A DNA stretch of 64,000 nt from Candidatus Levyibacteriota bacterium (GTDB taxonomy: Bacteria > Patescibacteriota > Microgenomatia > Levybacterales > UBA12049): the NCBI GenBank assembly GCA_041906785.1, contig JAYRIM010000014.1:3215-67214 (forward strand), in the 5' to 3' direction. The notes beneath the pieces are model-generated. The model was not told the origin of the DNA. It worked only from the letters and a program-made list of their open reading frames with translations, and ran no database searches. The position numbers and the translations under genes were made by a program. This document shows, one piece after another, positions 22,677 through 64,000 of the stretch; within the stretch, counting starts at the first letter, position 1; the number at the start of each line of letters is the position of its first letter.

Positions 22677-22702
22677 GAGTTGTCAGTTGTCGGCTGTCAG
22701 TT
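22677..22702. repeat. CAGTTnTC(A/G)G decamer-family repeat, short intergenic copy
   Basis: GAGTTGTCAGTTGTCGGCTGTCAGTT. Confidence 0.5.
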
Positions 22703-37636: not shown

Positions 37637-38623
37637 CTATTCTATAATCTCATAATAAACACCATTCGTAGTTCCGCGTTTTCTAATAAATCCCGTGTCT
37701 TGTAATTTCTTCAAGTCATACCGAAGAGTTCGTTCATTTATTTTCATGAACCGTCTTCGGATAATATCGAAATTGACAAGCTTATGATCCTTTATAATCT
37801 GCAAGATCTCTGCTCGTCGGGGTAGAAGGTAATCTTCAGCTTCACTTTTTTGTTTCGTCAGAACAATTTTTTTCGCAGCATCAGCAGTTTCAGCAATCGC
37901 ATCAAGCATAAATTCCACATAATCAGTAGCATCTTTTTCAGGTTCTTCAAGTGCTCTGTAATATTTACTTCTATTTTCATCCAAATATTCCTCAACAGGT
38001 AATAATTGTTTCATGCCGTATCCTCCTTTTTCTAGGATTGCTTGGAGGAACAGCCGGCCGACTCTACCGTTTCCATCTAAAAATGGATGAATTTTTTCAA
38101 AGGAATAATGTGCAAGAACAGCTCTAATCGGAATAAATACTTCTTTATCGCTATTTGCATATTTTATTAAACGTTCTATTAATAATGGCACTTGTTTTGG
38201 TGGAGGAGGAAGATAAATAGCAATTCCTGCTGCGTTATATATCGCTTCTGCTTGTTTTCTAAATTGTCCCAGGTTATCTTTATCTGTTAAATTTGCCATA
38301 ACTTTTTCATGCATTTGTAATAGGACAGCTGTACTGATATCTCTGGCACCACGCTCATGAATAAACTGCAAGCCTTTCAGGACATTAAAAACTTCAACTT
38401 TTTTCTGGTCACTAGATGGTTTGTGATTTAACTCTTCTAACGTGAGTGGATTTCCTTCAATTCGGGCTGAATAAAGCGAGCTTTTTAACACAGATACTCT
38501 TCGAATATTTGTTTCTATTTCTGGCGGGATCTGTATTGTATTCACAATTTCCCGCGCTGCTTCTATATGCTGTAATAATTGCGTTATTCGGGGTGTAAGT
38601 GAATATTTAGGTGGAATTAACAT
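37637..38623 (-). CDS. fic: Fic family protein (AMPylator-type) with C-terminal wHTH
   Basis: HPFLDGNGRVGRLF = Fic motif HPFx(D/E)GNGRxxR. Confidence 0.85.
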   Translation of the reverse strand: MLIPPKYSLTPRITQLLQHIEAAREIVNTIQIPPEIETNIRRVSVLKSSLYSARIEGNPLTLEELNHKPSSDQKKVEVFNVLKGLQFIHERGARDISTAVLLQMHEKVMANLTDKDNLGQFRKQAEAIYNAAGIAIYLPPPPKQVPLLIERLIKYANSDKEVFIPIRAVLAHYSFEKIHPFLDGNGRVGRLFLQAILEKGGYGMKQLLPVEEYLDENRSKYYRALEEPEKDATDYVEFMLDAIAETADAAKKIVLTKQKSEAEDYLLPRRAEILQIIKDHKLVNFDIIRRRFMKINERTLRYDLKKLQDTGFIRKRGTTNGVYYEIIE

Positions 38624-38836: not shown

Positions 38837-39136
38837 ATGAGATCTTATGAATTAGTATTAGTGCTGAGGCCTTCCTTAAATGAAAAGGACCGAGAGAAAC
38901 TTCTTAAAACCGTTAAAGATTGGTTAAAGGATGTTAAAATTAGTAAAGAAGATGTCTGGGGACAAAAGCCTCTTGCGTATAAAATAAAAAGAGAGGTAGC
39001 AGGATATTATGTTAAATATGATTTAGAGGCAGATCCTTCGGCAAGCTCAGGACAAGGAACCATTTCTTCAGAATTTGAAAAAAGATTAATTAACGATGAA
39101 AATATCATTAGACATTTATTGTTAAGAACGAAGTAA
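38837..39136 (+). CDS. rpsF: 30S ribosomal protein S6
   Basis: MRSYELVLVLRPSL... S6 N-terminus. Confidence 0.9.
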   Translation: MRSYELVLVLRPSLNEKDREKLLKTVKDWLKDVKISKEDVWGQKPLAYKIKREVAGYYVKYDLEADPSASSGQGTISSEFEKRLINDENIIRHLLLRTK

Positions 39137-46057: not shown

Positions 46058-46200
46058 TCAGTTCTCAGTTTTCAGTTGTCGGTTTTCAGATTGCAGTTTA
46101 TCGGTTATTAGTCTTTCAGTTTTTAAATATCTGACAAACTGAAAATGGATAGACTGGTAGCTGACGCTGATAACCGAAAACTGATTACGGATTCTGCCTC
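46057..46200. repeat. CAGTTnTC(A/G)G decamer-family element arranged as a long imperfect palindrome
   Basis: Direct decamer variants (CAGTTCTCAG TTTTCAGTTGTCGG TTTTCAG...) followed by the inverted set (CTGATAACCGAAAACTGA). Confidence 0.55.
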
Positions 46201-47364: not shown

Positions 47365-47387
47365 CAAAGAAGGTTTTGAAATAAACT

Positions 47388-49070
47388 CTACGTAAGATAT
47401 TGAGAGCTACTCGTATATATTTTTACTATATCTGCATCTGACAATAAACGTATCTTCTTCATGTTTTTCGTGTCCTTAAGATATCGATGGATAATTTTAT
47501 ACATATCGAGGTCAAAAGTATAATTAGTCGATAAATCCGAAGTGCGTAACCCGAAGTTCGAAAAAGAATCTAACTTTGAATTTTGTGCACTTAAAACGTT
47601 TTGATCATTCGGCATTGCTTCGAGTTTCGATAGTATAATTTCTGATGTATCTTCGTTACCTTCTTGATCGATTTTAACACTACCTATAAAGCACCATTTA
47701 TCGATGATAAAATGTTCTGTTATGCCTGTGATTTCATTTTTTTCATCGATAATAATTGGGCCAGTGAATGGCCAAGGTTTTATTTTCGTTTTACTAAATG
47801 CAGTGACGAATCTCGTATTGTAGAACAATGCTGATTCTTTACCAACGCATGCCCCTTTACATTTGTTTAGTCTGTAAGCGAAACAGGCGGTTGACGTTTT
47901 TTCTAGTCCGATTAGTTTCTCACACAATTGATATTCTTTCGAAACATCAGCCAAAAAATTCTTGGCTTGTTTTCTGGATTTAAAGAGGCCTAGTATTGTT
48001 CCTATTTCTCCTGAAGTTATTGTTTGTACAGGAAATAGTTCTATTCCATCATATCCTTTCGTGTTCGTTACTTTTCTTAAAGCGATAAGCTCATGTTTTA
48101 CCCTCAACATCCTATTATAGATAGGAAGTTTTTGCTTTATAAGGGTTGCTTCGAGAAAGAGTGCTCCAAGTTCGCCTGCAGTAACGATAGTTTCAATATG
48201 TTCAACTTGTTGCGCTATAGACATTTCTTTCGTTGATCGAATATCTCCTGAAAAATGTGATAAAACACGATCACGAATGTTTTTACTTTTACCGATATAT
48301 AAAGGAACAGGTTGTAAGTTGTCAGTTCTAGGTTGTGGGTTATCAGTAACAGAACTTTGACTGGTTATTCCATTTACATACTGATGACTGATGACTGACG
48401 ACTGACTACCATACATAATATACACCCCTGGCAATTCGGGAAGAGAATCTATGAGTGACCAAGACAATTTAGTAGGTACGGTTGGTCTTCGTAATGCTAG
48501 ATTTACAGCTTTAAGAAACTCATCTTCAGAAAAGGTTTTTTTTGCATATTGGTAAAAATGCCATAACGCTGACGCATCGTCAAAAGCACGATGTCGCTGT
48601 TCACAGTGAATCCCGCAGCGTTGAATAACAGCATCCAGATTATGATGAGATGCCGTAGGGAAGAGAGAACGAGAAAGTTTCACTGTACAGAGTTGCCTTG
48701 CCTGAAATGGTATATTTTCTCGAAGGAAGGAATGTTTTAAAAAACTATAATCAAATCGTGCATTATGCGCGACAAAAATGCATTCATTGAGAAGTGTGCG
48801 TATTTCATCAGCTACTTCTTGAAATGTAGGTTTATTTTCGAGATCGCGTTGAGTTATACCTGTCAACAGTTCGATTTCAGGAGGGAGATGAGTTTGGGGG
48901 TTAATAAGTGATTGGTATGTCTGTACAAGCTTATTTCCTTCAACTCGGAGAATTCCTATTTCGATAATCCTTCCGTAGGAAGCAGAAGTACCAGTAGTCT
49001 CAATATCGACAAAAGCAAGTCTATCAGGCAGCATGTGTTTGATTTTAACAAGCTTGATTTTGTCCTGCAA
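47388..49070 (-). CDS. DnaQ-like 3'-5' exonuclease fused to a GIY-YIG (UvrC/Cho-like) nuclease domain
   Basis: FVDIETTG exo I motif, HNARFD, later GVYIMYG...LYIGKSKNIRDRVLSHF GIY-YIG motif interrupted by ~28 extra residues. Confidence 0.7.
   Translation of the reverse strand: MQDKIKLVKIKHMLPDRLAFVDIETTGTSASYGRIIEIGILRVEGNKLVQTYQSLINPQTHLPPEIELLTGITQRDLENKPTFQEVADEIRTLLNECIFVAHNARFDYSFLKHSFLRENIPFQARQLCTVKLSRSLFPTASHHNLDAVIQRCGIHCEQRHRAFDDASALWHFYQYAKKTFSEDEFLKAVNLALRRPTVPTKLSWSLIDSLPELPGVYIMYGSQSSVISHQYVNGITSQSSVTDNPQPRTDNLQPVPLYIGKSKNIRDRVLSHFSGDIRSTKEMSIAQQVEHIETIVTAGELGALFLEATLIKQKLPIYNRMLRVKHELIALRKVTNTKGYDGIELFPVQTITSGEIGTILGLFKSRKQAKNFLADVSKEYQLCEKLIGLEKTSTACFAYRLNKCKGACVGKESALFYNTRFVTAFSKTKIKPWPFTGPIIIDEKNEITGITEHFIIDKWCFIGSVKIDQEGNEDTSEIILSKLEAMPNDQNVLSAQNSKLDSFSNFGLRTSDLSTNYTFDLDMYKIIHRYLKDTKNMKKIRLLSDADIVKIYTSSSQYLT
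48311..48410. repeat. decamer-family repeat embedded in frame in the exonuclease/GIY-YIG gene
   Basis: GTTGTCAGTTCTAGGTTGTGGGTTATCAGTAACAG ... CTGATGACTGATGACTGACGACTGAC; encodes the extra residues between the GIY and YIG motifs. Confidence 0.5.
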
Positions 49071-49094
49071 GCTCTACTTTTCACTTTGGTTTTT

Positions 49095-49185
49095 CAGTTA
49101 TGAATTGTATTATGTATTAAGTAGTATGTATTATGAGAGTATGCAGTTTATTACTTGCTACTTAGTACATTCTACTTAATACTAT
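49095..49185. repeat. family-3 promoter-proximal repeat, second copy
   Basis: AAGTAGTATGTA...TACATTCTACTT inverted pair plus TACTTGCTAC. Confidence 0.45.
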
Positions 49186-49189
49186 TATC

Positions 49190-50875: not shown

Positions 50876-50910
50876 TTGACATTTTTGTCCTATAAAGATA
50901 TATTCAGCGG

Positions 50911-51222
50911 ATGTTACAAACAGAATCTGAATTATATTTAATAATGCAAGCATATGATTCTCCGGAAGAAATAGAACGAGTAGTTCGCGAACAGACAGTT
51001 TTTCAGGCAACTATGGAGACTAAAACTTCTGAAGATGCTGTTGCTGCTTCCAGACAGGCTAATCAAGTCGTTTGGGATTTAGTTGTCCGAACTTCAGCAC
51101 GGGCTGAGTTAAGTGGAAAAACAAGTTGGATTGAAGAGGCGAGAGCATTACGTCAATGGAATAGAATAGCTCGAAGACATGAGGTCTTGTTTGATGCTAA
51201 CCAGTTAAATGGTACTCCTTAG
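50911..51222 (+). CDS. hypothetical protein
   Basis: 103 aa ORF, no motif. Confidence 0.3.
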   Translation: MLQTESELYLIMQAYDSPEEIERVVREQTVFQATMETKTSEDAVAASRQANQVVWDLVVRTSARAELSGKTSWIEEARALRQWNRIARRHEVLFDANQLNGTP

Positions 51223-51225
51223 TTT

Positions 51226-52167
51226 TTACTCAGTTTCTTCGAGTTTCTTTTTTGTTGCTTCAATAACTTCAGTTAAACCGTCTCCATCAAGAATATTCGG
51301 AAGGTTATGCCATGACTGACCAATTCTATGATCTGTTAAACGATCTTGAGGAAAATTATAAGTTCGTATTTTTTCAGCTCGCATTCCACGACCAACTTGT
51401 GTAGATTTAAGAGAACTTATTTCAAGATGTTGTTTTTCTACTTCTATTTCCCACAATTTAGCTCTGAGAAGCTTCATAGCTATTTCACGATTCTGTATTT
51501 GAGATCTTTCTGACTGAGATGTTACGACAATTCCGCTCGGCTTATGTGTAATTCTCACTGCACTTGAAACTTTATTTACATTTTGACCACCATGTCCGCC
51601 TGCACGGAATGCTGAGAATTCTATATCATCAGGATTTACATGCAGATCTATATCTTCAAGTTCAGGGAGCATTGAGACTGTAGCCGTCGATGTGTGAATA
51701 CGGCCGCGTTTTTCAGTTGTCGGAATTCGTTGTACACGGTGTACTCCTGCTTCAAATTTCAGCTTACCAAAAGCACCTTTTCCTGCGATTTTAATGACAT
51801 TCTCGTCTACATTCTCTACACGGAATCCTTGGGATTCAGCATAACGGCGGTACATTCTCACTAATTCTTCTCCCCATAATTTCGCTTCGTCTCCACCTGC
51901 TGCTCCTTGCAACTCTAAAATAATATTCCTGGTATCTAGATCATTTTTTTCTTCTGCACTAGATGCAGATAGAGAATCTTCAAGTAGTTTTTTTTGTGCT
52001 TCTAGATCTATAATCTCTGCTTGTGCGAGTTCAATCATCGCAGGATCTGTAAGCAGCTGTTGCGTCTCAGCGATTTTCTGTTCTAACTCTTGGATTTGGA
52101 TCAGTCGGTAATCGTTCATATTGAGGTTTTTGATTGAACGCAGAGGATTTGGTGAAGTATTGTACAC
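51226..52167 (-). CDS. prfA: peptide chain release factor 1
   Basis: GGQ motif RAGGHGGQNVNKV; tripeptide region RIPTTE (PxT-type, RF1) rather than SPF; RTYNFPQDRLTDHRI; start may be the internal MNDYRL (~52119). Confidence 0.7.
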   Translation of the reverse strand: MYNTSPNPLRSIKNLNMNDYRLIQIQELEQKIAETQQLLTDPAMIELAQAEIIDLEAQKKLLEDSLSASSAEEKNDLDTRNIILELQGAAGGDEAKLWGEELVRMYRRYAESQGFRVENVDENVIKIAGKGAFGKLKFEAGVHRVQRIPTTEKRGRIHTSTATVSMLPELEDIDLHVNPDDIEFSAFRAGGHGGQNVNKVSSAVRITHKPSGIVVTSQSERSQIQNREIAMKLLRAKLWEIEVEKQHLEISSLKSTQVGRGMRAEKIRTYNFPQDRLTDHRIGQSWHNLPNILDGDGLTEVIEATKKKLEETE

Positions 52168-52218
52168 CCTTGTCTCGCTTTGCTTGCAAGCGGACTCCTT
52201 CGCTGCGCTCAGTCCGTC

Positions 52219-52515
52219 CTATTTCATGCCTAAAAGCATATCGCGAAGTGACTTAGGGGCTTCGTCTTTCTTTTTCTGTTCTTCAACTTTCTTTTTCTGT
52301 GTAGCTTGGTATGTTGCAGCTTTCTGGCGTGCATCTTCAAACCGTTTTATAGAAGAGCGAGTATCGACAAATTTTTGCTCTCCTGTATAAAATGGATGGC
52401 AGTTATAGCATAACTCGACCTGGATAGTTTGCTGTGTTGAGCCTACGGTAAATCTGTTACCGCATACGCAGATGACTTGAGCGTCATAATATTGTGGATG
52501 GATATTTGCTTTCAT
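52219..52515 (-). CDS. rpmE: 50S ribosomal protein L31
   Basis: MKANIHPQYY...CxC...CxxCHPFYTG. Confidence 0.9.
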   Translation of the reverse strand: MKANIHPQYYDAQVICVCGNRFTVGSTQQTIQVELCYNCHPFYTGEQKFVDTRSSIKRFEDARQKAATYQATQKKKVEEQKKKDEAPKSLRDMLLGMK

Positions 52516-52680
52516 AGTTCGATAATTATACTAAATTAGCATAGAGGAAACAAGTATTTGTCTGAAAAGAGTAAAGATATAAACAGTTTTCTGGTTTGTT
52601 TGTTATCTAGTTGTCTAGTTGTTTTAACCAGAAAACAAGCAAAAAAGTAAACTAGACAACTCGGGTTTCTTAGATACTTC

Positions 52681-53670
52681 TCAAATAATGGACTTTAGTC
52701 CTTCAGAAAGTTTAGTTATTGTTTGATAATGCAGCCTTCCTTCAGCCACGAAAAGGCCTAAAAAAACGAGAGTAGAGCCGAGGAGATAGGTAAAGGTAAT
52801 TGTTTCATCTAATAAAGGAATGGCTATAAGCACTGCAATAATTGGATCCATATAAGAGAAAATCCCAATCTCACTAGCGTCTAAATATTTCATAGCGATA
52901 CAGGATAAGCTATACGCTAAAGCAGAAGAAAGACATGCGCCAAAAATAATACCGACAACTCCTGGAAAACCGATGTTGGTTAAAAAGCCTTTTGTCGATA
53001 TTTCAGAAAGCATAAAAGGGAGAAAAGTTATAGAACCGATAAGGAATGTCCAAAACGTGAGTACAAGAGGGTCATAATATGTAACTAATTTTTTTAAATA
53101 CACTGTGTGTACTACTCCACCAATGGTTGCCAGGAGAAAGTAAAGGTTTCCTATAAATGATGTATCTAATCCCTGTTCTATAAGGGGGCGTATAATAATG
53201 ATCGTTACACCTGCCAAGCTAAGAAACATGCCATAAATAACTTTTTTTTTCGGTTTTTCTTTTAAAAATAATATTGCAGCCAGTAAAATAAGAACTGGTC
53301 CTGACGAACCAATAATAGGAGCATTAACACTTGAAGCGTACTCTAATCCTAGAAAGAAAAAGGTGATATTTATCGTTATACCTGCAATAGCACCGAATAT
53401 GATATGCCCGAAATGTTCCTTTCTTATTGTTACATTTTTATATACAAGTGGTAGTAGTAGATAGGTAGCAAGAAAAAAACGAAGAAAAGCTAACGTAAAC
53501 GGTTCTATATCTAATAAAGACCATTTAAAGACTGGCGCAGCAGCTCCCCAAATAAAATTTGCAATTATGAGAGCTAAAATGGCGCGGCGTGTTTTCGGCA
53601 GGGTCATGGGTATTAATAATAATTGCTGTATTGCTATATTATTATATTGTTGAGAAAAACAATTTAGCAA
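52681..53670 (-). CDS. EamA/DMT-family transporter
   Basis: 10 TM, duplicated EamA halves. Confidence 0.7.
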   Translation of the reverse strand: MLNCFSQQYNNIAIQQLLLIPMTLPKTRRAILALIIANFIWGAAAPVFKWSLLDIEPFTLAFLRFFLATYLLLPLVYKNVTIRKEHFGHIIFGAIAGITINITFFFLGLEYASSVNAPIIGSSGPVLILLAAILFLKEKPKKKVIYGMFLSLAGVTIIIIRPLIEQGLDTSFIGNLYFLLATIGGVVHTVYLKKLVTYYDPLVLTFWTFLIGSITFLPFMLSEISTKGFLTNIGFPGVVGIIFGACLSSALAYSLSCIAMKYLDASEIGIFSYMDPIIAVLIAIPLLDETITFTYLLGSTLVFLGLFVAEGRLHYQTITKLSEGLKSII

Positions 53671-53699
53671 TATAACAATAAAACAATTAGTAGAAGATA

Positions 53700-54917
53700 C
53701 TAAATAAGTGAAAATTTGAATTCACTCAGAAATTGCTCAAGCGGCATTTCTTTCTGCTCTCTTTTCACCATGTTCTTTAATAGTATAGCATTTTTACTAG
53801 CCTCTTCAGAGCCAATAATAATGACATAAGGGATCCCTTTCTTATCTGCATATTTCAATTGTTTTTCCATTTTCGCATTTTCATCAAGATATAATTCTGT
53901 ATTTATATTATTCGAGCGAAGCCGAGAACTAATTTCCAACGAAATATTCTTTAATTCTGGCGAAAAAATCGTTACGAGTACTTTTGTCGTTGTTTTTGTT
54001 TTTGGTAGCAACCCAAATTGTTCGGCTGCTTCCAGTGTCCTTTCAAAGCCTAAACCAAAACCTGTGCCTGGTATATCCTGTCCAGCAATTTTTGTCGTTA
54101 ATGAATCATATCTTTCTCCACCTAATACTGATCCTGCTTCATAACCAGGTACAACAATTTCCCAGATAGGACCGTCGGAATAAGCGAAAGATCGTGCTAT
54201 TGTCGGATCAAATTCATACCATGTTTCATCAAAACCATATTGTTTTAATGATGTGAGAATAGTTGTAATTCTTTCATTTGGTTGTAAGTTTATAATCGTT
54301 TCTAAATATTCTTTTGCTTTTTCGGTTGGTATTCCTTTCATTTCCATATCTTTTATTACACCTTCAGGACCAATCTTTTTAAGTTTATCTATTGCTACTA
54401 CTGCCTCATAAGGAAACTCTTTTAATAACTTACGATCGTTTATTTTTACGATTACTTGTTTAAACCCAAGCTTTTTATAAATATCGAGTGAGAGAGCTAT
54501 GGTTTCAGCGTCAGCGACAGGTGAGGGGAGGCCCCATATATCTGCATCACAGGAAAGAAATTCACGGTAGCGTCCTTTCTGTGGATTTTCAGATCTAAAT
54601 ACAGACTGGATTTGATATCGTTTAAATGGCATGGGAAGATCATTTTGATATTGTGCCACAAATCTGCACGAAGGAACTGTTTGATCATACCGAAGCGCTA
54701 CATTTCTTCCACCACGATCCTCAAACTGAAAAAATAATTTTTCATCTTCACCAATAACACCTTGAAAAAGTTCGAGATATTCAAGAGTTGGTGTTTCTAT
54801 AGGATCATACCCCCATAGCTCGAATACCTCCCGGATTTTATCACGAAGAAAATTACGCTTTATAGCGTCTTCTGGTAAAAAATCCCGAAATCCTTTTAAT
54901 GTTTGTGGTTGATTCAT
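53700..54917 (-). CDS. hisS: histidine--tRNA ligase
   Basis: Class II aaRS motifs, LKGFRDFLPED N-terminus, anticodon-binding C-terminus. Confidence 0.85.
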   Translation of the reverse strand: MNQPQTLKGFRDFLPEDAIKRNFLRDKIREVFELWGYDPIETPTLEYLELFQGVIGEDEKLFFQFEDRGGRNVALRYDQTVPSCRFVAQYQNDLPMPFKRYQIQSVFRSENPQKGRYREFLSCDADIWGLPSPVADAETIALSLDIYKKLGFKQVIVKINDRKLLKEFPYEAVVAIDKLKKIGPEGVIKDMEMKGIPTEKAKEYLETIINLQPNERITTILTSLKQYGFDETWYEFDPTIARSFAYSDGPIWEIVVPGYEAGSVLGGERYDSLTTKIAGQDIPGTGFGLGFERTLEAAEQFGLLPKTKTTTKVLVTIFSPELKNISLEISSRLRSNNINTELYLDENAKMEKQLKYADKKGIPYVIIIGSEEASKNAILLKNMVKREQKEMPLEQFLSEFKFSLI

Positions 54918-54938
54918 ATATATTATTCTTCCGTAATT

Positions 54939-55970
54939 TTACAATAGAACTTGTTCATATTGAAGCCCCAATTGTTGGGGGCTAAATAACTTCCTACCTT
55001 TTCTAGTTCTCCAAATCGGGACTGCTTTTTTTGCAAAAATCATAACTTTTTTGTTGCTATTTTTATTAAAATTATTAATTCCTTGTATTCTATCTGTATC
55101 CATAAGAAGAATCGAATCAGGTGCCGTTACTACTACCTTATCATTTTTGAGTAAGATAATATTTTCATTTTTATACACTACTTTCCAGATACAACTTTTA
55201 GATTTGATAGTATATTCACCAGATTCAAATCCTTTTGTTTGAGTTGTACTATTACTGGTAATTATGCCAGTATCGTAATAAATTAAATCTAACATCGTAC
55301 AAAGTTCCTCAACAGTTTTTTTCTTACTTCTTATTTCTCGTAAAAATTCTCCAGCTTGTTCAGCAAGGATTAGACTATTTTGAGGAGTGGCATTTCTTAT
55401 CTGTTTTATTTGCATAGGATAACCAGCTATATAAGCATCACCACCTGCAGCAACAGCGAAACTTCTCAAAAGTAATTCAAGATGTTGAATCGATGCCGTG
55501 TTCCATAGGACAGCAGTGTTGTTTTTATCATCAGCGATAACACAGGGAGTTCTACTTACATTGATTAAGCTAATAAGTTCTAAATACACTTCTGGTGCGG
55601 AACGTAATCCGACTAAGTCACTATTTAAGACAGGTACTCCAAGTGTATTTGCTGCAAAAAGTGCTGTAGCGATAGACTCTGCTCCTAGTTCCACAGGGAC
55701 TATAGCAGTGATAGGTCTCTTATTTATTTCCATGAACACGGATAACGCAGAACGGACTGCTTTTACAGGATCAATTGTTTGTTTTCCTCCGATACCAAAA
55801 ACAGTGCAAACAAGATCTGTCTCTATAAGTTCATTAAAATTAATAAGGTCTACTCTTTCAATCTTTTTGAGTAAAGGCTCAGCATCGGCGATTGTTCCAC
55901 CACCACCAGTTCCTAGAAAGTTAGCGCCTTCAATAATATTATTTATTTTTGTTTTAGTGAGTGTTTTCAT
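54939..55970 (-). CDS. DUF917-like protein
   Basis: N-terminal ANFLGTGGGGT glycine loop typical of DUF917; start overlaps the stop of the upstream gene by 4 nt. Confidence 0.5.
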   Translation of the reverse strand: MKTLTKTKINNIIEGANFLGTGGGGTIADAEPLLKKIERVDLINFNELIETDLVCTVFGIGGKQTIDPVKAVRSALSVFMEINKRPITAIVPVELGAESIATALFAANTLGVPVLNSDLVGLRSAPEVYLELISLINVSRTPCVIADDKNNTAVLWNTASIQHLELLLRSFAVAAGGDAYIAGYPMQIKQIRNATPQNSLILAEQAGEFLREIRSKKKTVEELCTMLDLIYYDTGIITSNSTTQTKGFESGEYTIKSKSCIWKVVYKNENIILLKNDKVVVTAPDSILLMDTDRIQGINNFNKNSNKKVMIFAKKAVPIWRTRKGRKLFSPQQLGLQYEQVLL

Positions 55971-57373
55971 ACTTCAATTCCTTCTGTTATATAAGAAAAA
56001 AAAGCTCTGAGATCCCGGGCAAGTAAAAAATTTCTTTCTCTTACTTGATCAATTAATTCAGCTTTCAATGTCTCAGTTTTCTGCTGCATTCTTCCTCTTG
56101 CTGAAGGATCTGCCCCTTTTCCATTTGTCATAAATTGTGTACTCAGTCGTGTCTTTTCATCTCTGAATATTTGTTGTATGTCTGCGAGTTCTAATAATAC
56201 TCTTTGTGTTGATCCAAGTGGTAGAAAGTTGACACCCCACAGATAAAGATTATTATCTGCTGGGTTTAGTACACAGTTTCTTTCTGGATCAAGTATACCA
56301 TTGGTTTGTAGCATTGAATTCCAATTGGAAATGTTTGGAACCTGGCCGGCTGCTAACTCTTTTCGAACATTCCTACCATTTCCTGTCAGACATTCAATAT
56401 ATGCGATAAACCCTGTATCGTTATTAAATCCCCTTTGATCCATGTATTTTCCTTTATCCCAGTAAATAGCCCGCCCCATTTCTTTTTCTGCTTCACTTTC
56501 TAATGCTGCATGCATAGCAGGTTCTACGACAAATGCCTTTTGATTTTGTATGTAGCCTTTTTGCCTTAGCATATCCAGATATGGTTGTGAATACATAGCC
56601 CAAACGAGAGAAGAAGATTGTAGAGTATTTTTTTGTCGTGGATTGGATGTTTCAAGTTTCTCGACAGTTAATCCTACTTGTCGTAGCATATCGTCTCGTG
56701 CTTTTTCTAAATCCTCCCAAATATCATCATCTACTACTCGTTGAAATATGACTCGATCTTTTCCAGTAACATATTCAATATATCGGGCAGTTAATTCTGC
56801 TTTTATTCTTTCTGCTGTCTCGACTGATAGTTCAAGTTCGTCTCTCTCTTCTGATGATAATTTTCCAAGAATTGCTTCCACTTTATCACTAAGTCGTTGA
56901 CTCCATAAACGGCGTTCTGAAATGACAGCATATTCCCGTGCGTTTACCGCTCCGACGCTTTCAATGATTTGATCGAATGCGATAGCTCGGGGAATCCAGT
57001 CTGCAACTTGACTAACGCTGCTCACTTTTTCTAGTTCTCCAGTTACCGGATTCATAATAACTCCTGCATTGGATATATTTTCGACATCTTTTGTTCTAAT
57101 TGCACACCACCCACCAGCCACAGCTAACTGTTCAGGGACAAGTGAACATCCACTATTCGGGTTAGATGCTATAAGTACTTTTGGTGCGAATTCACCTAGT
57201 AGAGTAGAGAACTCGCATTCATCACCTTCGAGTAGCGGTAGTTCTTTTCCATCTGGAAGCATACCGCGTTTTGCTAGATCAATTTTTCTTTGTAATAAGT
57301 TTTCTCCGCCAAGTGGTTGCCAAAGTCTTCTTTGGACATCGCTTGATGAGTATATTTTGTTATTTCTTTCCAT
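55967..57373 (-). CDS. hypothetical 469-aa protein co-transcribed with the DUF917-like gene
   Basis: Start set at ATG 57373 (MERNNK), which has a ggtgaaaa RBS; no motif recognised. Confidence 0.45.
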   Translation of the reverse strand: MERNNKIYSSSDVQRRLWQPLGGENLLQRKIDLAKRGMLPDGKELPLLEGDECEFSTLLGEFAPKVLIASNPNSGCSLVPEQLAVAGGWCAIRTKDVENISNAGVIMNPVTGELEKVSSVSQVADWIPRAIAFDQIIESVGAVNAREYAVISERRLWSQRLSDKVEAILGKLSSEERDELELSVETAERIKAELTARYIEYVTGKDRVIFQRVVDDDIWEDLEKARDDMLRQVGLTVEKLETSNPRQKNTLQSSSLVWAMYSQPYLDMLRQKGYIQNQKAFVVEPAMHAALESEAEKEMGRAIYWDKGKYMDQRGFNNDTGFIAYIECLTGNGRNVRKELAAGQVPNISNWNSMLQTNGILDPERNCVLNPADNNLYLWGVNFLPLGSTQRVLLELADIQQIFRDEKTRLSTQFMTNGKGADPSARGRMQQKTETLKAELIDQVRERNFLLARDLRAFFSYITEGIEV

Positions 57374-57596
57374 AGTTTTCACCACAAAAAAACCGCCTTT
57401 CAGCGGTGGTATTTTTGGTTTACGAACGTAAACACGATAAAACACACCGCCTAAGAGGAGGTATGCTTGTGTCCGTTTTTGTTAGTAATGCTATATGTCA
57501 TATTTCAGCCATTCTACTATAAGATGATAATGATGTCAACAGTATACATAAAGAAGAGCTTGACAGACAAGTGAAGAATAGAACTATAATAAGTTA

Positions 57597-58376
57597 ATGT
57601 CAAAGATCATATTTTTCCTGTCTGCATTAATCTCTCTTCTTTTTGTTCCGATTAGTTATGCGTATGCACAAAAAGGTGTTGATGATCTTCCAGAAGTAGC
57701 AGGGGATTATGCAGTTGAAGGGAAAAAGGACCTTCGAGTTCGTGTATTTGTTCATCCTCATAAAGAAAAAGACGCGTTTAAAAGTTCACCTGTAACGTTG
57801 GCTGCTTGTACGCCTGATGTAGAATCAAGCGCAACAGTCGGTCTTGCTGGTTGGCATTTACCAAGTGGTGCAACAGCGTATAGAGTAAATTACTCTACAG
57901 TGCCATCGAGCGTTGGTACTCTTTCAGCGAAAACAGCAATAGCTAATGTATTTTCTACATGGGATAATGAAATTGTTGCTGTGTCTTTTACAGAAGGTTC
58001 GCAGACATCGGTAACTCGAGCGAAATTAGATGGACAAAATGCAGTTTTTTGGAACAGGCTTTCTTCATCCACTCTTGCAGTTACATATGTTTGGTATAAC
58101 ACAACCTCACAAGAAGCAGTAGAGATAGACATGGTGTATAACAAACGTCATCCCTGGAAATATACACCATACACGAATAGCGCTTGCGGTGATTTAAATT
58201 CATATGATGTTCAAAATATCGGTACGCATGAGGTAGGGCATTGGATGGGTTTGGATGATATGTATGGATCTTCAGATGTCGATGTGACTATGTATGGATA
58301 TGGTGAAAAAGGTGAGTTAAAGAAAGATACATTAACGACAGGTGATATAAACGCTGTGAAAGTGTTGTATCCTTGA
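57597..58376 (+). CDS. secreted metzincin-like zinc metalloprotease (snapalysin/M7-like HEXXHXXGXXD)
   Basis: Signal peptide; HEVGHWMGLDD zinc-binding motif. Confidence 0.55.
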   Translation: MSKIIFFLSALISLLFVPISYAYAQKGVDDLPEVAGDYAVEGKKDLRVRVFVHPHKEKDAFKSSPVTLAACTPDVESSATVGLAGWHLPSGATAYRVNYSTVPSSVGTLSAKTAIANVFSTWDNEIVAVSFTEGSQTSVTRAKLDGQNAVFWNRLSSSTLAVTYVWYNTTSQEAVEIDMVYNKRHPWKYTPYTNSACGDLNSYDVQNIGTHEVGHWMGLDDMYGSSDVDVTMYGYGEKGELKKDTLTTGDINAVKVLYP

Positions 58377-58383
58377 ACTTATG

Positions 58384-59499
58384 CTATAACTCCTTAAAAT
58401 CCCTTGGGGTATCTGTTAACTGTTTAAGTGTATTATTTTCTATTACAAATAAGTCTTCAATTCTCACTCCTCCATAGTTTGGAATATAGATTCCCGGTTC
58501 TATAGAAAACACCATTCCTTCAGTTAGTATTTGTTTTGACACAGGTGAAAGAGTAGGGGCTTCATGAACTTGTAACCCAATACCATGACCTAGAGAATGG
58601 GGGATGGAGGGGTAGTCTTGGGAGAGAATATGATTTCTTGCGGCGGCATCTATATTTGATGCTATTATCTCCTTAGCTCCAGAGTTGTCGGTTATCAGTT
58701 GTCGGTTGTCAGCTAGATGCAAATGAATATAATCAATTGCTTTTTGTTGGGCTTCTCGAACAACATTATATATGCGTTTTTGTTCATCAGTTGCTTTGCC
58801 AAAAAATAGTGTTCTCGTCATATCTGAACAATAAGATTCAACTTTCACGCCAAAATCCAGTAACACCAGGTCGCTAGTCGCAAGTCGTTTGTCGCCTGTT
58901 TGGTGGTGGGGGATGGCGGCGTTTGATCCAAATGCCACAATTGGATCGAACGATAGTTCTGCTCCTTGTTCTAAAATAAAGATTTTCAGTTTTTTTGCTA
59001 ACTCTTTTTCAGTTATACCAGGTTTTATTTTTGTAAGAATGAAATTAAATCCCAAATCTCCAATACGACATGCTTCTGCTATTTTTTCAATTTCTTTATG
59101 TTCTTTCTGGATGCGAAGCGTGTGTAATTCTGCTGGTTTAGTATCAAGTACTATTTCTTGAATTTTCTTTAATTCATAAACAGTTATATCTTTTTCTTCT
59201 ATCCCTAATGTTTGTATATTGTTTTGTTCGCATAATTCAGTAAACACTTTCTGAAACTGATTTGTTGAAGATAGCTCGATAAGCTTTAAATGTCCTAAAG
59301 CATGTATTGCTGTTGTATATCGGCCGTCAGTGAGAACATATGCTTCTTTTGCTGTTATAACGAGATATGCTTCTCGTTCTTCAACAGAAAAGTTTGTATA
59401 TCCACTTAGATACGATATATTCGCAACAGAGGTGATAAGAAACGCATCAAGTTTCTGTTTGTCTAATAAGCGACGAACTTTTTCGATTCTATTATGCAT
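58384..59499 (-). CDS. pepP: Xaa-Pro aminopeptidase (M24B)
   Basis: Pita-bread fold metal ligands ...DFG..., HSLGHGIGLQVHE, C-terminal ...GVRIEDL. Confidence 0.85.
   Translation of the reverse strand: MHNRIEKVRRLLDKQKLDAFLITSVANISYLSGYTNFSVEEREAYLVITAKEAYVLTDGRYTTAIHALGHLKLIELSSTNQFQKVFTELCEQNNIQTLGIEEKDITVYELKKIQEIVLDTKPAELHTLRIQKEHKEIEKIAEACRIGDLGFNFILTKIKPGITEKELAKKLKIFILEQGAELSFDPIVAFGSNAAIPHHQTGDKRLATSDLVLLDFGVKVESYCSDMTRTLFFGKATDEQKRIYNVVREAQQKAIDYIHLHLADNRQLITDNSGAKEIIASNIDAAARNHILSQDYPSIPHSLGHGIGLQVHEAPTLSPVSKQILTEGMVFSIEPGIYIPNYGGVRIEDLFVIENNTLKQLTDTPRDFKEL
58679..58712. repeat. decamer-family repeat embedded in frame in pepP
   Basis: AGTTGTCGGTTATCAGTTGTCGGTTGTCAG encodes ...ADNRQLITDN... 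Confidence 0.45.
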
Positions 59500-59504
59500 G
59501 GCAG

Positions 59505-60320
59505 TTATCGTGGTGAAGGTTTTGGTGTAGAACTTTTTGGAGCAGAGTTATTTACTGGTGTAGAAGTGGGCTGAGTTTCCTGGAATTCTATTTTCGGGTT
59601 TCCTGGAAGTTCAGGAAAAATAATAAATCTGGAAGCTGTTATTCTATTCTTTTCCGTTTTACTGGAGAATCCTACGACATACACTCTACTTCCGGTTTCA
59701 ATACGAGAAAATCCTGATCGTTTAATATTGTCGTCCTCAGTATATGTAGATGTTTTTGTAACATTTTCGATGTCGATAGTGTACGATTTATCATTCTCAG
59801 ATAAAATCGTCACTGTAAAATTTGCCTTATCTACTGATTTAACAATACCTGTGATGAATACAGGTCCATTAGCGACGTCGATAAACCGTGCGAGAATCCT
59901 TTTCGATTGCTTATTATATAAGCCAATTGTACTGATTGTCATACCTTCTTTTATGTCAGAGATTCCGAATGATTTGGCTGTAGGGGATGAGAATTTTGTT
60001 AATTCGTCAACGTCTATTATGCGCACTTTCTGTCCTAGATCTTCTCCTGTGATTTTATTACCAGCAACTTCTTTAACGACTATAATAATTCCTCTTTTTT
60101 CTACTAACCGTAACTCTGCAACTTTTGAAGCGACTTTCTCTTTCAGATTATTTATTTGTTCTATTAGTTTTTCTTCTTTTTCCGCTTCTGTAGCCTTCGG
60201 TTCCGCAGTAGGCGTTGCAGCGTAGATGGGGCGTAGAGCTAAGAGCATAGAGCTTAGAGAAAATATAAGTAAGAAAGATAGCAATTTATGAATATTGATT
60301 TTTGATTTTTGATTTTTCAT
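59505..60320 (-). CDS. secreted hypothetical protein
   Basis: Signal peptide, coiled-coil, C-terminal Pro/Ser/Thr tail. Confidence 0.4.
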   Translation of the reverse strand: MKNQKSKINIHKLLSFLLIFSLSSMLLALRPIYAATPTAEPKATEAEKEEKLIEQINNLKEKVASKVAELRLVEKRGIIIVVKEVAGNKITGEDLGQKVRIIDVDELTKFSSPTAKSFGISDIKEGMTISTIGLYNKQSKRILARFIDVANGPVFITGIVKSVDKANFTVTILSENDKSYTIDIENVTKTSTYTEDDNIKRSGFSRIETGSRVYVVGFSSKTEKNRITASRFIIFPELPGNPKIEFQETQPTSTPVNNSAPKSSTPKPSPR

Positions 60321-60751
60321 TAGAATTCTTCAGTTGTGCTTGTTACTGTTCGTGTTTGTGTTTCTTCTTCGCCATTACTAAATATAGCAGTTACATGTAA
60401 GACATTTACGCCATCTTCCAGTGTATGCGTTAAAGTAAAATCTCCTTTTGTATTTGGAGTTACGACTTGATCTGATGATTGTGTAGAAATAATGACCAAT
60501 GTTCCTGGTGAAGTTTTTCCCGTAATCGTTATTAATCTTTTATCAAATACCTCTTCATCTTTAGGGTTTTCTACGATAAGGAAATTTGAGTCATTACTCA
60601 CAGATTTAGTTGGCTGAACAACTGTTGATTCCTTTTGTGTTTCAGGCTCGCTAATTGTTCTTGTCATTTGATAAATATAAAATGCGCCTCCGGCAACAAA
60701 AAGGCCAAGAATAATTGCTATAAATGACAAAATAATTTTTTCTTTACTCAT
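60320..60751 (-). CDS. membrane-anchored hypothetical protein
   Basis: N-terminal TM, Thr-rich; stop/start adjacent to the downstream gene. Confidence 0.4.
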   Translation of the reverse strand: MSKEKIILSFIAIILGLFVAGGAFYIYQMTRTISEPETQKESTVVQPTKSVSNDSNFLIVENPKDEEVFDKRLITITGKTSPGTLVIISTQSSDQVVTPNTKGDFTLTHTLEDGVNVLHVTAIFSNGEEETQTRTVTSTTEEF

Positions 60752-60754
60752 GTG

Positions 60755-60900
60755 AAGATGCGAAAATCGCGAATACGCATTTCCTTATTGTGCAATTCGT
60801 GTATTTCGCAAAGATTTCGTGTTTTTAGTGATAAATTCCCTGCTCGCAAATATCGCGAAACATAGCAGTAGAATGGAATTTATCGTAGCTGAATGATAAG
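60755..60900. repeat. family-4 repeat, second copy (in a divergent promoter region)
   Basis: ..CGAAAATCGCGAATACG..TATTTCGCAAAGATTTCGTG..TCGCAAATATCGCGAAACA..GAATGG. Confidence 0.4.
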
Positions 60901-60941
60901 GTATAATCATCCTATTGTCAAGAAATTAAGCATGTGTTAGG

Positions 60942-61469
60942 ATGTACGTTATGGAAATCTCCTTAGTATCTCCACATAGCATCAGAATAAAAAATAGACA
61001 AGGTTCTTTACTGATAAATCCTGGTGGTAAATCTATAGTAGCAAATGGTATTATCATCATGAAAAATGCTTCATTCGACTTGAAAAGCTTGGAGGAAGGA
61101 ACAGTTGTTATCCAAGGTGCTGGAGAATACGAATTTGCTGGAATAAAAATATCAGGTTTTAGAAATGGAGAGGACATTCTGTATAGTATCCGTACAGATA
61201 GAATAGAAATCCTTTTCGGTTCAATTAAAACATTGGAAAAAGATTATGCGAAATTGAAAGAACATCATATCGTTATCGCATTTGCTGATAGTGAGGCGGA
61301 TCCCTCATTTCTTACATCAGTCGCATCAAATGTGATTATATTTGTTGGTGAGAAAGCCGAAGGAACAATCAGTAAAATTGCTAAAGATGGATATAGAAAA
61401 GAATCTAAATACTCTATAACATTTGAAAAATTACCACAGGAGATAGAAGAGATACTACTAACTTCTTGA
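60942..61469 (+). CDS. hypothetical protein (possibly degenerate MBL-fold, UPF0173-like)
   Basis: LLINPGG...VVIQGAGEYEF pattern but no HxHxDH. Confidence 0.35.
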   Translation: MYVMEISLVSPHSIRIKNRQGSLLINPGGKSIVANGIIIMKNASFDLKSLEEGTVVIQGAGEYEFAGIKISGFRNGEDILYSIRTDRIEILFGSIKTLEKDYAKLKEHHIVIAFADSEADPSFLTSVASNVIIFVGEKAEGTISKIAKDGYRKESKYSITFEKLPQEIEEILLTS

Positions 61470-61470
61470 T

Positions 61471-61600
61471 ATTCAGTTATCAGTTTTCGGTTATCAGTTA
61501 TCGGAATTTAGGTCACCAGTTATCAGGTTGCCAGTCTGATAAACAGAAAACCGTTCAACTAGTATCTGAAAACAGACAACTGAAGACTGATAACTGAACT
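61471..61600. repeat. CAGTTnTC(A/G)G decamer-family element (direct then inverted units) upstream of dnaB
   Basis: CAGTTATCAGTTTTCGGTTATCAGTTATCGG ... CTGAAAACAGACAACTGAAGACTGATAACTGAAC. Confidence 0.55.
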
Positions 61601-62914
61601 ATGGCAACTCGAACCTTACCTCATAATGAAGAAGCAGAAAAAAGCGTTTTAGGTGCAGTTCTTATAGATAAAGATGCTATGATAACCGTTTCCGAGCTTC
61701 TTGTTCCTGAATGTTTTTATAATTCCACAAATGCAATTATTTATGAATGTATGTTAGTACTCTACGAGCAGAGGAAACCAATAGATTTATTAACAATAAC
61801 AGCAGAATTAAAGAAAAAAAAAGCGAATACAATAGACAGTGAATATTTTACAAGTCTTGTTGAAGCTGTACCGACAGCAGCAAATGTAGAACACTATGCA
61901 AGTATTGTCCGAGAAGCATACACAAAACGATCATTAATACGTGCAGGAACAGAAATCGCAGATTCAGCCTATGAAGATGGAAAAGATGTTAAAGAGGTAC
62001 TCGATAAAGCTGAATCAGCAGTTTTTTCTATTTCGCAACGTTTTATAACACGTGGTTTTATTCCGATAAAAGATACACTAACAGCAAGTTTCGATAAAAT
62101 TGACGAGCTTCATAGAAAAGGTGCAGGACTTCGTGGTATTAAAACTGGATTTGGAGACCTAGACACTGTTTTATCCGGGATGCAGAAATCAAATCTTATC
62201 ATATTGGCCGCACGCCCTGGGCAGGGAAAAACTGCAATTATGTTAAACATGGCTCAATACGTTGCAGTACATGAAAAAACTCCGATAGGCGTTTTTTCCC
62301 TCGAAATGAGTAAAGAAGAATTAGTAGATAGACTTTTAGTCGGACAGGCAGATGTCGATGCTTGGAGATTGAAAACCGGAAAATTATCAGAAGATGACTT
62401 TACTAAAATTTCAGAAGCGATGGGACAGTTAGCTGATGCGCCAATTTTTATTGATGATACTCCTGGATTATCTATCATGGAAATGCGTAGTAAAGCGAGA
62501 CGTTTACAGCTTGAACATAATATTGGATTAATTGTTGTTGATTATTTACAGCTTGTTGATCCTGGGAGACATTATGAGAGTAGAGTACAAGAAGTTTCTG
62601 CGGTTTCTCAATCATTGAAAAATTTAGCTCGTGAGCTAAATGTACCAGTTCTCGCCGCATCTCAGCTTTCTCGTGCAGTAGAACATAGAGGAGAAAGAAG
62701 ACCACAATTAGCAGATCTTCGTGAGTCAGGTGCAATAGAACAAGATGCAGATGTAGTGATGTTTCTCTACAGACCTGATGTAGAGGTGACAGGACCGACA
62801 ATACCAACCAAATTACTTGTTGCGAAACATCGTAACGGCCCAACTGATGAGATCGATTTGTTATTTAGGGGAGATAGAATAAAATTCTATAGTATAGATA
62901 AAAAGAGGGAATGA
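61601..62914 (+). CDS. dnaB: replicative DNA helicase DnaB
   Basis: N-terminal domain, Walker A GARPGQGKTA, ...IVVDYLQL..., ...ASQLSRAVE..., ...EQDADVV... Confidence 0.9.
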   Translation: MATRTLPHNEEAEKSVLGAVLIDKDAMITVSELLVPECFYNSTNAIIYECMLVLYEQRKPIDLLTITAELKKKKANTIDSEYFTSLVEAVPTAANVEHYASIVREAYTKRSLIRAGTEIADSAYEDGKDVKEVLDKAESAVFSISQRFITRGFIPIKDTLTASFDKIDELHRKGAGLRGIKTGFGDLDTVLSGMQKSNLIILAARPGQGKTAIMLNMAQYVAVHEKTPIGVFSLEMSKEELVDRLLVGQADVDAWRLKTGKLSEDDFTKISEAMGQLADAPIFIDDTPGLSIMEMRSKARRLQLEHNIGLIVVDYLQLVDPGRHYESRVQEVSAVSQSLKNLARELNVPVLAASQLSRAVEHRGERRPQLADLRESGAIEQDADVVMFLYRPDVEVTGPTIPTKLLVAKHRNGPTDEIDLLFRGDRIKFYSIDKKRE

Positions 62915-62917
62915 AAA

Positions 62918-64000
62918 CTAACGGTTAATTACTCGTTTCGTTGTGGGATGTATATGGACTAATAATTCATAAGGGATCACATCACATATTTTAGAAGCGT
63001 TGACTATAGAATTTTTATCATTTGATTGACTTGAAAATATAACGGCTTCATCTCCAATTTCTGCTTGTTTAATATCCGTAATATCAATAGTTGTTATATT
63101 CATGCTTACTTTTCCAATTATTCTGCAGTATATCCCGCGGACCTGGACATAGCCTTTATTTGATAACCTTCTATCAACGCCATCATTATATCCGATGGGG
63201 AGAACAGCGATAGTCATATCTTTAGTTGCAGTAAACGTAAAATCATATCCAATTTTTTCTCCTTTTTTTACTATTTTAATTTGAACTATTGTTGATCTGA
63301 GTTTAAGTACTGGTAAAAGATTTTTGTCTCTACCTTCAGGATCAATGCCGTACAAAGCAATACCTGCTCGCGCCACATTACTTAATGTTTGATACTCTTT
63401 ATTATATAAAATACCTAGCGAAGCGGGTAAATGAATGTATGTTGGGTTTACTCCTAATGTATGGAGTATCTTTTGGGCTTTAAGAAAATTTGTCACTTGC
63501 TCTTTGGTTTCTTTCTTACGTGGTTGATTTGCCATTCCAAAATGAGACATAAGACCTTCTATTTTTAGAGATAAAGATTGCGTCTTTTTTATAAATATAG
63601 GCAGTTCTTCAAGTGATACACCTTCCCTATGAAGGCCGGTATCAACGAAAATATGCACACCTGCATGAGGCTGATATTTTTTTATTCCTTCAAGCATCTC
63701 ATACTCGTATACAGCGAAAGAGAAGGGCAGCTTTTTAACACGAAGATTCTCAGGATTCACGTATCCCATTATCAGAATTGGTGTGCGAATATTTGCCTTT
63801 AACAGTTGATAGCCTTCATAAATACTATCCACACAGAAGAAAGGCGCCTGTAGATGATCAAGTATGTTTGCAATTAATGATATGCCATGTCCATATGCAT
63901 TGCTTTTTAAAACAGGAGCTATTTTTTTACCACTACTCATCTGTGTAAGGTATGAATAATTTTCTACGAGATTTTTTTCTGCAATTTCTACAGTATTTAA
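62918..64000 (-). CDS. alr: alanine racemase (5' end runs off the window)
   Basis: PVLKSNAYGHG PLP-lysine motif; reading frame stays open upstream of the annotated Met to position 64000 (…LNTVEIAEKNLVENYSYLTQ…). Confidence 0.8.
   Translation of the reverse strand, partial: LNTVEIAEKNLVENYSYLTQMSSGKKIAPVLKSNAYGHGISLIANILDHLQAPFFCVDSIYEGYQLLKANIRTPILIMGYVNPENLRVKKLPFSFAVYEYEMLEGIKKYQPHAGVHIFVDTGLHREGVSLEELPIFIKKTQSLSLKIEGLMSHFGMANQPRKKETKEQVTNFLKAQKILHTLGVNPTYIHLPASLGILYNKEYQTLSNVARAGIALYGIDPEGRDKNLLPVLKLRSTIVQIKIVKKGEKIGYDFTFTATKDMTIAVLPIGYNDGVDRRLSNKGYVQVRGIYCRIIGKVSMNITTIDITDIKQAEIGDEAVIFSSQSNDKNSIVNASKICDVIPYELLVHIHPTTKRVINR

Follow-up and report, generated by a model that had tools for sequence, protein, structure and literature searches.

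An in-frame array of a TAACTGA-type heptanucleotide repeat in a variable helix connection of a patescibacterial Xaa-Pro peptidase

Contig JAYRIM010000014.1 of Candidatus Levyibacteriota bacterium, of which we analysed a stretch of 64,000 nucleotides (nt; the window, hereafter), carries a pepP gene in which a short run of DNA resembles repeats that lie between other genes of the window. The product of the pepP open reading frame (ORF) contains Peptidase_M24 (PF00557, E = 1.6e-62) and Creatinase_N (PF01321, E = 5.2e-19) domains and matches small prolidase/YpdF-type Xaa-Pro peptidases of the PDB at E = 1e-50 to 1e-54. Residues D215, D226, H305, E334 and E348, which we take to be the five metal ligands (Asp, Asp, His, Glu, Glu) of the M24B family, fall in invariant columns of a 47-sequence alignment. 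An AlphaFold model of the protein (mean predicted local distance difference test, pLDDT, 94; predicted template modelling score, pTM, 0.91) matches 5cnx, 3q6d and 1wn1 at Foldseek template modelling (TM) scores of 0.88-0.92. Judged from sequence and model, the enzyme is apparently intact and its Xaa-Pro activity is predicted. Its nearest relatives in a database of 5.8 billion proteins come from metagenome-assembled genomes (MAGs) of Patescibacteria and are only 58-59% identical, with none above 59%; the named hits among them are Daviesbacteria and 'Patescibacteria group', and a scan of a genome collection adds one Levybacteria. The syntenic loci recovered in relatives comprise dnaB, then a small gene and a pair of secreted-protein genes, followed by pepP, hisS and further genes.

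On the coding (minus) strand of pepP, head-to-tail heptamers read CTGACAA CCGACAA CTGATAA CCGACAA CT and encode A263-N272, ADNRQLITDN (residues 259-274, array included, are ...HLHLADNRQLITDNSG..., and the wider context is ...IDYIHLHLADNRQLITDNSGAKEIIASNID...). An earlier note on this DNA had quoted the peptide correctly, but the DNA it gave as coding strand is the antisense strand of pepP, the + strand of the tract being AGTTGTCGGTTATCAGTTGTCGGTTGTCAG. The same note had called the repeat a decamer. The unit is in fact a heptamer, or a 14-nt double unit: Tandem Repeats Finder returns 2.1 copies of period 14 (93% matches) and 3.9 copies of period 7 (80% matches), and the decamer, GTTGTCGGTT, is only the longest exact word common to both 14-nt double units of the tract and to 46075-46084. 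By these copy numbers and by the shuffle controls given below, the tract qualifies as a heptanucleotide simple-sequence repeat.

Frames 0 and 1 of the array hit stops, and frame 2, the coding one, is alone open. In this frame a pure TAACTGA array would read GAT AAC TGA TAA CTG ATA ACT (D N stop stop L I T), and the actual codons are GAC AAC CGA CAA CTG ATA ACC (D N R Q L I T), the would-be TGA and TAA stops standing as CGA (R266) and CAA (Q267), each a single T-to-C change apart. LITDN, encoded by forward TAACTGA repeats, is present in the product. The array contributes exactly 30 nt (10 codons), and it persists in frame because of this total added length and because the stops are removed. Since intergenic arms contain such C variants as well, CCGACAA at 46075-46084 being one, these belong to the normal variation of the family and their origin need not lie in pepP. 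Among 30-nt windows drawn from the intergenic arms, 29% are free of stops in forward orientation and 78% in reverse.

Only one arm of the intergenic hairpin layout is present in pepP, and the tract folds as RNA no better than shuffles (z = -0.7). On inspection of the sequence it is without an inverted partner or terminal repeats, and a target duplication is not evident either. Antisense to pepP, a TTGTCA hexamer supplied by the array stands 16 nt upstream of TATAAT (58706-58733, + strand, 11/12 match), a site that the array thus makes up in part. A scan of 45000-64000 for promoter and terminator consensus returned counts at shuffle level, so that this site is no evidence of a promoter.

The repeat family to which the tract belongs, a degenerate variant of the published heptamer TAACTGA, has the consensus CYGANAA, which can equally be written NAACYGA. 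The pepP units CAACCGA, CAACTGA and TAACCGA are 1-2 mismatches from TAACTGA and none is exact. The total count of TAACTGA in the window is not enriched (10 against 13.5 expected), as was also found for the published repeats (MacGregor 2015, PMC4679880). The longer words behave very differently from their shuffles: GTTGTCGGTT at one mismatch or less has 15 matches (2.3 expected), of which those at 46075, 58684 and 58698 are exact, and the two-unit pattern CRGTTNTCRGTTNTC has 16 against 0.19, all of them within the pepP tract, the two arms of 61474-61596, and the stretches 22677-22698, 46059-46087, 46169-46183 and 51707-51721. The 18-mer at 58695-58712 recurs with one mismatch (17/18) at 22683-22700 and 46072-46089 and, at three mismatches or less, has 10 matches against 0.04 expected. 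The earlier proposal of an in-frame copy of the family found in the intergenic elements at about 46058-46195 and 61472-61598 is borne out by these shuffle-controlled matches, which are far above chance. The copies have only the heptamer units in common and no longer consensus. Both intergenic elements fold: the first reaches -56.9 kcal/mol with z = -7.9 (46050-46205), and the second, whose 63-nt arms are 71% complementary, reaches z = -5.1 (61465-61605), its forward arm, 61536-61598, stopping 2 nt short of the dnaB ATG (61601).

Period 7 is over-represented in the window as a whole. When arrays of periods 5-12 were sought as four copies with at least 75% self-match, with low-complexity runs removed and shuffle controls, we found 14 period-7 arrays against 0.2 in shuffles (about 70-fold; a stricter threshold of 85% periodicity yields only 3 arrays), and 0-1 for every other period (5-6, 8-12). 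Eleven of the 14, all unit types included, are intergenic and three lie in real genes; an array scored as 'coding' at 46053-46092 falls in a spurious antisense ORF. Units change by locus (TGTAGTA, AGTTTCC, AAGTTAC, GAATTGA, TGTATTA, CAGTTNT), and most arrays are paired in inverted orientation. Per 100 kb, we count 21.9 period-7 arrays in the window, as against 7.1 over eleven further Patescibacteria loci and 1.1 over 72 loci from other phyla, where periods 6, 9 and 12 are relatively commoner, as expected of coding repeats. At gathering thresholds, no Rfam family matched the window.

Where in the protein does the array lie? HMMER alignments to 1wy2, 3q6d and 1wn1 leave 13-16 residues of the query unmatched exactly at hlhladnrqlitdnsg, between the long helix ending ...EAQQKAIDYI and the next helix, NIDAAARNHIL, both of them in the second half of the pita-bread domain. 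Relative to canonical M24B proteins the extra segment has 16 residues, of which exactly 10 are encoded by the array, and it lies about 30 residues upstream of HSLGHG; the earlier note had rightly seen an extra segment upstream of the conserved block, but the 12-14 residues and the position just before that block were underestimates. With A254 and D284 as anchors on 84 loci, 71 of the 72 homologues from other phyla have 13 residues in this connection and one has 14, as against 29 in the window. With the gap in solved prolidases, this supports the earlier statement that the segment lacks a canonical M24B counterpart, and the lengths in the 72 other-phyla homologues likewise show it not to be conserved in distant lineages. 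Among the Patescibacteria loci listed, the lengths are 14, 16, 19 (four times), 20, 23, 30, 30 and 38, so that the window has the commonest patescibacterial length, 19, plus the 10 codons of the array. A wider protein alignment runs from no extra residues up to about 35, of low-complexity content, and reveals no sequence conservation of the loop among relatives over its range of 14-38 residues. On these alignments, the loop is already long and hypervariable across Patescibacteria and is not a discrete insertion private to this genome.

In the AlphaFold model, helix 238-271 is predicted to run on through the array-encoded residues, where blocks 261-270 and 271-280 have the lowest pLDDT of the protein, 78-79. 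In the pita-bread fold the helices occupy the outer face and the metal site lies on the concave face of the sheet. By analogy with this general fold, the connection is probably exposed and remote from the active site.

Table 1. Features of the window discussed in the text, and repeat units in the corresponding pepP loop of relatives.
Feature	Position	Strand	Basis
Small M24B Xaa-Pro peptidase (prolidase/YpdF type), 371 aa	58384..59499	-	Pfam domains, invariant columns, Foldseek
In-frame array of four head-to-tail heptamers in pepP	58683..58712	-	Sequence; Tandem Repeats Finder period 7/14; only open forward frame is the used one
Hypervariable connection between two helices of the pita-bread domain, codons 255-283, 29 residues	58651..58737	-	Anchor lengths, PDB gaps, pLDDT
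Intergenic element, long hairpin: reverse arm (TCAGTTN)n right after the upstream stop codon, forward arm (CYGANAA)n	46058..46195	.	RNA fold
Intergenic element with exact TAACTGA tandems, same CYGANAA family	61472..61598	.	Arms, fold
Short intergenic array of the CYGANAA family (AGTTGTC) in the middle of a larger inverted repeat; matches the pepP tract at 17/18	22677..22702	+	
Degenerate two-arm heptamer element in frame in the DnaQ-exonuclease/Cho-like nuclease ORF 47388..49070	48311..48412	-	
L004 loop: TTCTCAA TTCTCAA CTCTC..., again ...CAACTCT CAACTCT			
L007 loop: TTTTCAA four times, perfect			
L008 loop: ATCAATC, GTCAATA			
L009 loop: ATCAATC three to four times			
L012 loop: GTTGTCA-type, the window's family in opposite orientation			
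L085 loop: TAACTGA TAAACTGA AAACTGA TAACCGG, the window's family and orientation, encoding ITDKLKTDNR			
L086 loop: TTCTCAA TTCTCAA TGTTCAA TTCCCAA			

The same loop carries heptamer arrays in other genomes. The census is small, with 14 Patescibacteria genomes among the matches listed (at least 8 from the genome-collection scan) and 72 loci from other phyla, and in 8-9 of these 14 the loop DNA is heptamer-periodic, with differing units (Table 1). In the window, L004, L007, L008, L009, L012, L085 and L086, the loop DNA matches itself best at period 7. Although the loop makes up only about 6% of the gene, the strongest period-7 stretch of pepP falls inside it in 7 of 12 Patescibacteria sequences, one of which (L001) is the window's own genome and another (L002) scores weakly (13/21), and also in L085 and L086, as against 3 of 72 loci from other phyla. 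Thus, the recurrence of period 7 in relatives marks a long-standing site of heptamer arrays in the clade rather than one hit once here, and the presence of other heptamer units in those loops points to a resident array remodelled by slippage rather than to a one-off insertion of an intergenic element.

The loop is not restricted to heptamers. In L003 (10784-10873) it encodes SSRERSESRSEFSTSS and its DNA is a small palindrome, TCGAGAA GTGA GTTCTCGA, with no heptamer array, which implies that it accepts other repeat-like DNA too. When the loop DNA of L002, L003 and L004 was compared by word matches with the 20 kb around each, no convincing match emerged. Five of the loci with a Patescibacteria-like pepP and synteny (L006, L007, L008, L011 and L013) come from records titled 'uncultured Gammaproteobacteria bacterium', probably a labelling problem in MAG submissions.

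A second gene of the window holds both arms of such an element. In the Cho-like nuclease gene, the insert listed in Table 1 sits between GVYIMYG and PLYIGKS (the GIY and YIG motifs) and encodes SQSSVISHQ (reverse-type) followed by VTDNPQPRTDN (forward-type), so that the GIY-to-YIG stretch spans about 36 residues instead of the usual 10 or so. In L002 (19262-20863, 59% identity), the orthologue has a longer insert at the same site, containing CTCAGTTGTCTGATTCAGGTTTATCAGTTTTCGG and GAAAACTGATAA and built from related units (CAGTTNT/ACTGATAA). A pattern search of this syntenic relative found no exact CRGTTNTCRGTTNTC; at such stringency the two genomes do not have the strict family in common, though related units are present in its Cho-gene insert. 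The insert of the window folds no better than shuffles (z = -0.8), and an in-gene hairpin, considered for both this insert and the pepP tract, was dropped on these z values. Elsewhere in the same ORF (47531-47642), a segment of about 36 residues, IILSKLEAMPNDQNVLSAQNSKLDSFSNFGLRTSDLSTN, is missing from the L002 orthologue, and its DNA has short inverted words of the TCGAA/TTCGG type.

In the secreted-protein gene beside pepP (59505..60320, - strand), the N-terminal tail and signal region are built from arrays at 60231-60259 and 60284-60321. Its orthologues also carry arrays there (9219-9257 in L002; 9266-9299 in L003, a perfect (TTTGTTA)x4.9), and by this comparison the N-terminus of the gene is a second place where in-gene arrays recur.

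To explain the pepP tract, we favour, as the probable reading, an in-frame array of the dominant heptanucleotide repeat of the genome, generated by slippage and kept as a tolerated by-product in a long-standing array site. Replication slippage with a strong preference for 7 nt would create, expand, contract and homogenise arrays genome-wide. Between genes, arrays would be kept as inverted pairs that fold into long hairpins, and these may also act as structured RNA or DNA. Within genes, arrays would survive only in tolerant parts of the protein, with an added length divisible by three and without in-frame stops. Three units amount to 21 nt, that is seven residues or one helical heptad, and the gain of one heptad would fit both the 6-7-residue gap between the canonical 13 residues and the common patescibacterial 19-20 and the helix extension seen in the model. 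The array peptide itself is probably neutral for the protein. Perfect arrays (38633-38680; (TTTGTTA)x4.9 in L003; (TTTTCAA)x4 in pepP of L007) suggest that the process is still active.

Several points weigh against this explanation. Slippage itself is unobserved, and the sole second assembly of the genome, L001 (Logan), is identical over 14.7 kb, with no copy-number variant. Four imperfect units are a poor substrate for present-day slippage. An origin in situ would by itself leave unexplained why the pepP units match the main intergenic family at 17/18, although in a family with few variable positions such matches are expected among members. The loop sequences differ in the closest relatives (58-59%), so that the arrays may have come down by common descent or arisen independently more than once. 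Finally, exposure of the connection is suggested by the general pita-bread fold together with a model whose pLDDT is 78-79 in this region.

The near-identity to intergenic units, 17/18 at two loci, is what a mobile or templated element would leave, similar to Rickettsia palindromic elements or MITEs (miniature inverted-repeat transposable elements): an arm of an intergenic hairpin would have been copied or transposed into pepP and would be in frame by luck. The presence of a whole two-arm element in frame in the Cho-like nuclease gene also speaks for such an event, as does the fact that the array equals exactly the 10 codons beyond the common patescibacterial loop length. However, copies have no consensus beyond heptamer units, other intergenic loci use entirely different units, and the pepP tract has none of the inverted partner, terminal repeats or target duplication that would betray insertion; in fact it lacks what defines such elements, namely a consensus at least about 100 bp long, inverted repeats at the ends and many near-identical copies. 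Moreover, other unit types occupy the loop in at least seven other genomes, and site-specific strikes by different elements would be less economical than local slippage. We consider this origin unlikely.

A bolder proposal, to which we give only a slim chance, is that heptamer arrays are selected and heritable in this patescibacterial clade rather than debris of slippage, with a heptamer-specific system that generates or binds repeats maintaining them at fixed places across the diverged genomes. These places would include intergenic hairpins adjoining start codons, the helix connection of PepP, the hairpin of the Cho-like GIY-YIG gene and the N-terminus of the gene beside pepP. In-gene arrays would then be regulatory sites or frame-switching tracts in organisms with very few classical regulators, and the patchy, unexplained distribution of TAACTGA (Beggiatoaceae, Cyanobacteria, Bacteroidetes) would reach the candidate phyla radiation.

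It is less probable still that the pepP tract is itself a functional nucleic-acid element, either a site for a regulator that binds heptamer repeats, such as has been suggested for TAACTGA repeats in front of start codons, or an on/off contingency locus that works by gain and loss of units. Arrays do persist in the loop among genomes with PepP proteins of only 45-59% identity, the four units of L007 are perfect, and intergenic forward arms end 2-8 nt before the starts at 61601, 40133 and 49190, as in Beggiatoaceae (PMC4679880). Nevertheless, unit sequence and even orientation (L012) differ between genomes, and therefore no common binding motif is conserved; the pepP units are imperfect (80% matches), and L001, the sole other assembly, shows no length variant. 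The host also speaks against a switch, PepP being a cytoplasmic housekeeping peptidase and not a typical phase-variable surface gene.

Could the added peptide instead be an adaptation of the enzyme, such as an oligomer contact or a gate for substrates? The segment is predicted, with moderate confidence, to continue the helix, and lengthening of the loop is general in Patescibacteria. However, the loop is unconserved in sequence, varies from 14 to 38 residues and is of low complexity, and the DNA repeat determines its sequence (DN-RQ-LIT periodicity), all of which makes an adaptive role highly improbable. As for a chance resemblance of an ordinary variable loop to the repeat, the tract is short (30 nt), but with 0.04-0.19 matches expected from shuffles against 10-16 observed, and period 7 the sole enriched period, we give it practically no weight.

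Beyond pepP, intergenic inverted array pairs, each with its own unit, lie at 5095-5195, 8132-8217, 21555-21648, 40043-40128 and 49106-49182 (period 7) and at 53622-53687 (period 8), and right-hand arms stop 4-8 nt short of the starts at 40133 and 49190. A perfect (AAGTTAC)x6.9 at 38633-38680 occupies the divergent spacer between the starts of 37637..38623 (-) and 38837..39136 (+) and, of all tracts in the window, it is the prime candidate for active slippage. The spacer upstream of dnaB holds an inverted-array hairpin in the window (period 7), in L002 (7947-8031, period 9) and in L004 (7984-8053, period 8); there is almost no spacer in L003, and in L086 it has no obvious arrays. Where the hairpin occurs, its architecture is conserved, and unit length and sequence are not.

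More interesting than the tract itself are the side leads: the excess of period 7, the pairing of arrays into hairpins, their position right beside start codons and their repeated presence in the same loops of diverged genomes. Still, the tract offers a clean and checkable example of a genome-specific 7-nt slippage habit writing residues into a conserved enzyme, from DN-stop-stop-LIT to DNRQLIT. It also marks one helix-helix connection of the pita-bread fold as permissive for 1 to 25 extra residues. The placing of TAACTGA-type repeats in a Patescibacterium, in hairpin arrangement, bears on what they may do near start codons. For annotation, there is a warning: low-complexity loops in proteins of candidate phyla can be derived from repeats rather than functional.

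How does the array compare with known systems? Rickettsia palindromic elements are 100-150 bp long, with a defined consensus and palindromic ends, and occur both between genes and in frame in conserved proteins. The resemblance is that repeated, genome-specific DNA is found between genes and in frame at a tolerated site, where it adds 10 codons and leaves the pepP ORF intact and its catalytic residues in place. Unlike these elements, the pepP tract has only 30 nt and a single arm, and shares only a 7-nt unit with the other copies. Such elements, with other in-frame MITE insertions, are reviewed in PMC10969869. In simple-sequence contingency loci, such as those of Haemophilus influenzae, the tracts are long and perfect, the host genes are surface or virulence genes and copy number is documented to vary (PMC2651432). 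In pepP, too, a tandem repeat lies in a reading frame and a change in unit number would shift the frame, but the host is a housekeeping peptidase, the four units are imperfect and there is no variation between the window and L001.

The heptamers of Cyanobacteria (short tandemly repeated repetitive sequences, STRR), like those of the window, come as several tandem unit types per genome near starts or promoters, and are suspected of a regulatory role that is as yet unproven; contiguous heptamers close to start codons in Nostoc are an example (bioRxiv 10.1101/2022.06.06.494920). They belong to another phylum and have other units, and none is reported as recurrently resident in one protein loop. 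More generally, the parts of Mrazek et al. 2007 that are relayed in PMC4679880 describe long simple-sequence repeats with units of 5-11 nt, heptanucleotides being the commonest class, and propose polymerase slippage as the generator of the bacterial heptanucleotide excess, an excess also noted in PMC4692102. The arrays of the window are similarly head-to-tail, with period 7 specifically over-represented. Where the unit length is not divisible by three, exclusion from genes is expected, yet the pepP array is in frame.

The TAACTGA repeat itself was described by MacGregor (2015) as abundant direct repeats in marine Beggiatoaceae, some Cyanobacteria and five Bacteroidetes (PMC4679880). These repeats are mostly intergenic, often a few nt before start codons; they translate forward as LITDN and then stops in every frame, and are therefore largely excluded from genes, and in reverse as LSVISYQ (PMC4679880). 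The window has the same core heptamer, with exact tandems at 61472-61598, and its arrays are also mostly intergenic, with forward arms a few nt before starts. Its translations agree as well, with LITDN and stops forward and LSVISYQ-like peptides in reverse (SVISHQ in the Cho-like gene), and in-gene copies are rare and peripheral. The differences concern host, units, arrangement and the pepP copy. The host is a Patescibacterium, a phylum not listed in PMC4679880, and our search of a literature library found no publication on heptamer repeats in Patescibacteria. Units in the window are degenerate (CYGANAA, with alternation of CTGA and CCGA) and accompanied by many other period-7 units. Its arrays are usually inverted pairs that fold as long hairpins, whereas MacGregor (2015) counted 169 direct sets and a single indirect one (PMC4679880). 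The pepP copy, finally, lies in the middle of a catalytic domain with its stop codons mutated. Thus, while the kind of repeat is already known, what is new here is a TAACTGA-type repeat in a Patescibacterium, in frame in a variable and probably exposed connection of an M24B peptidase.

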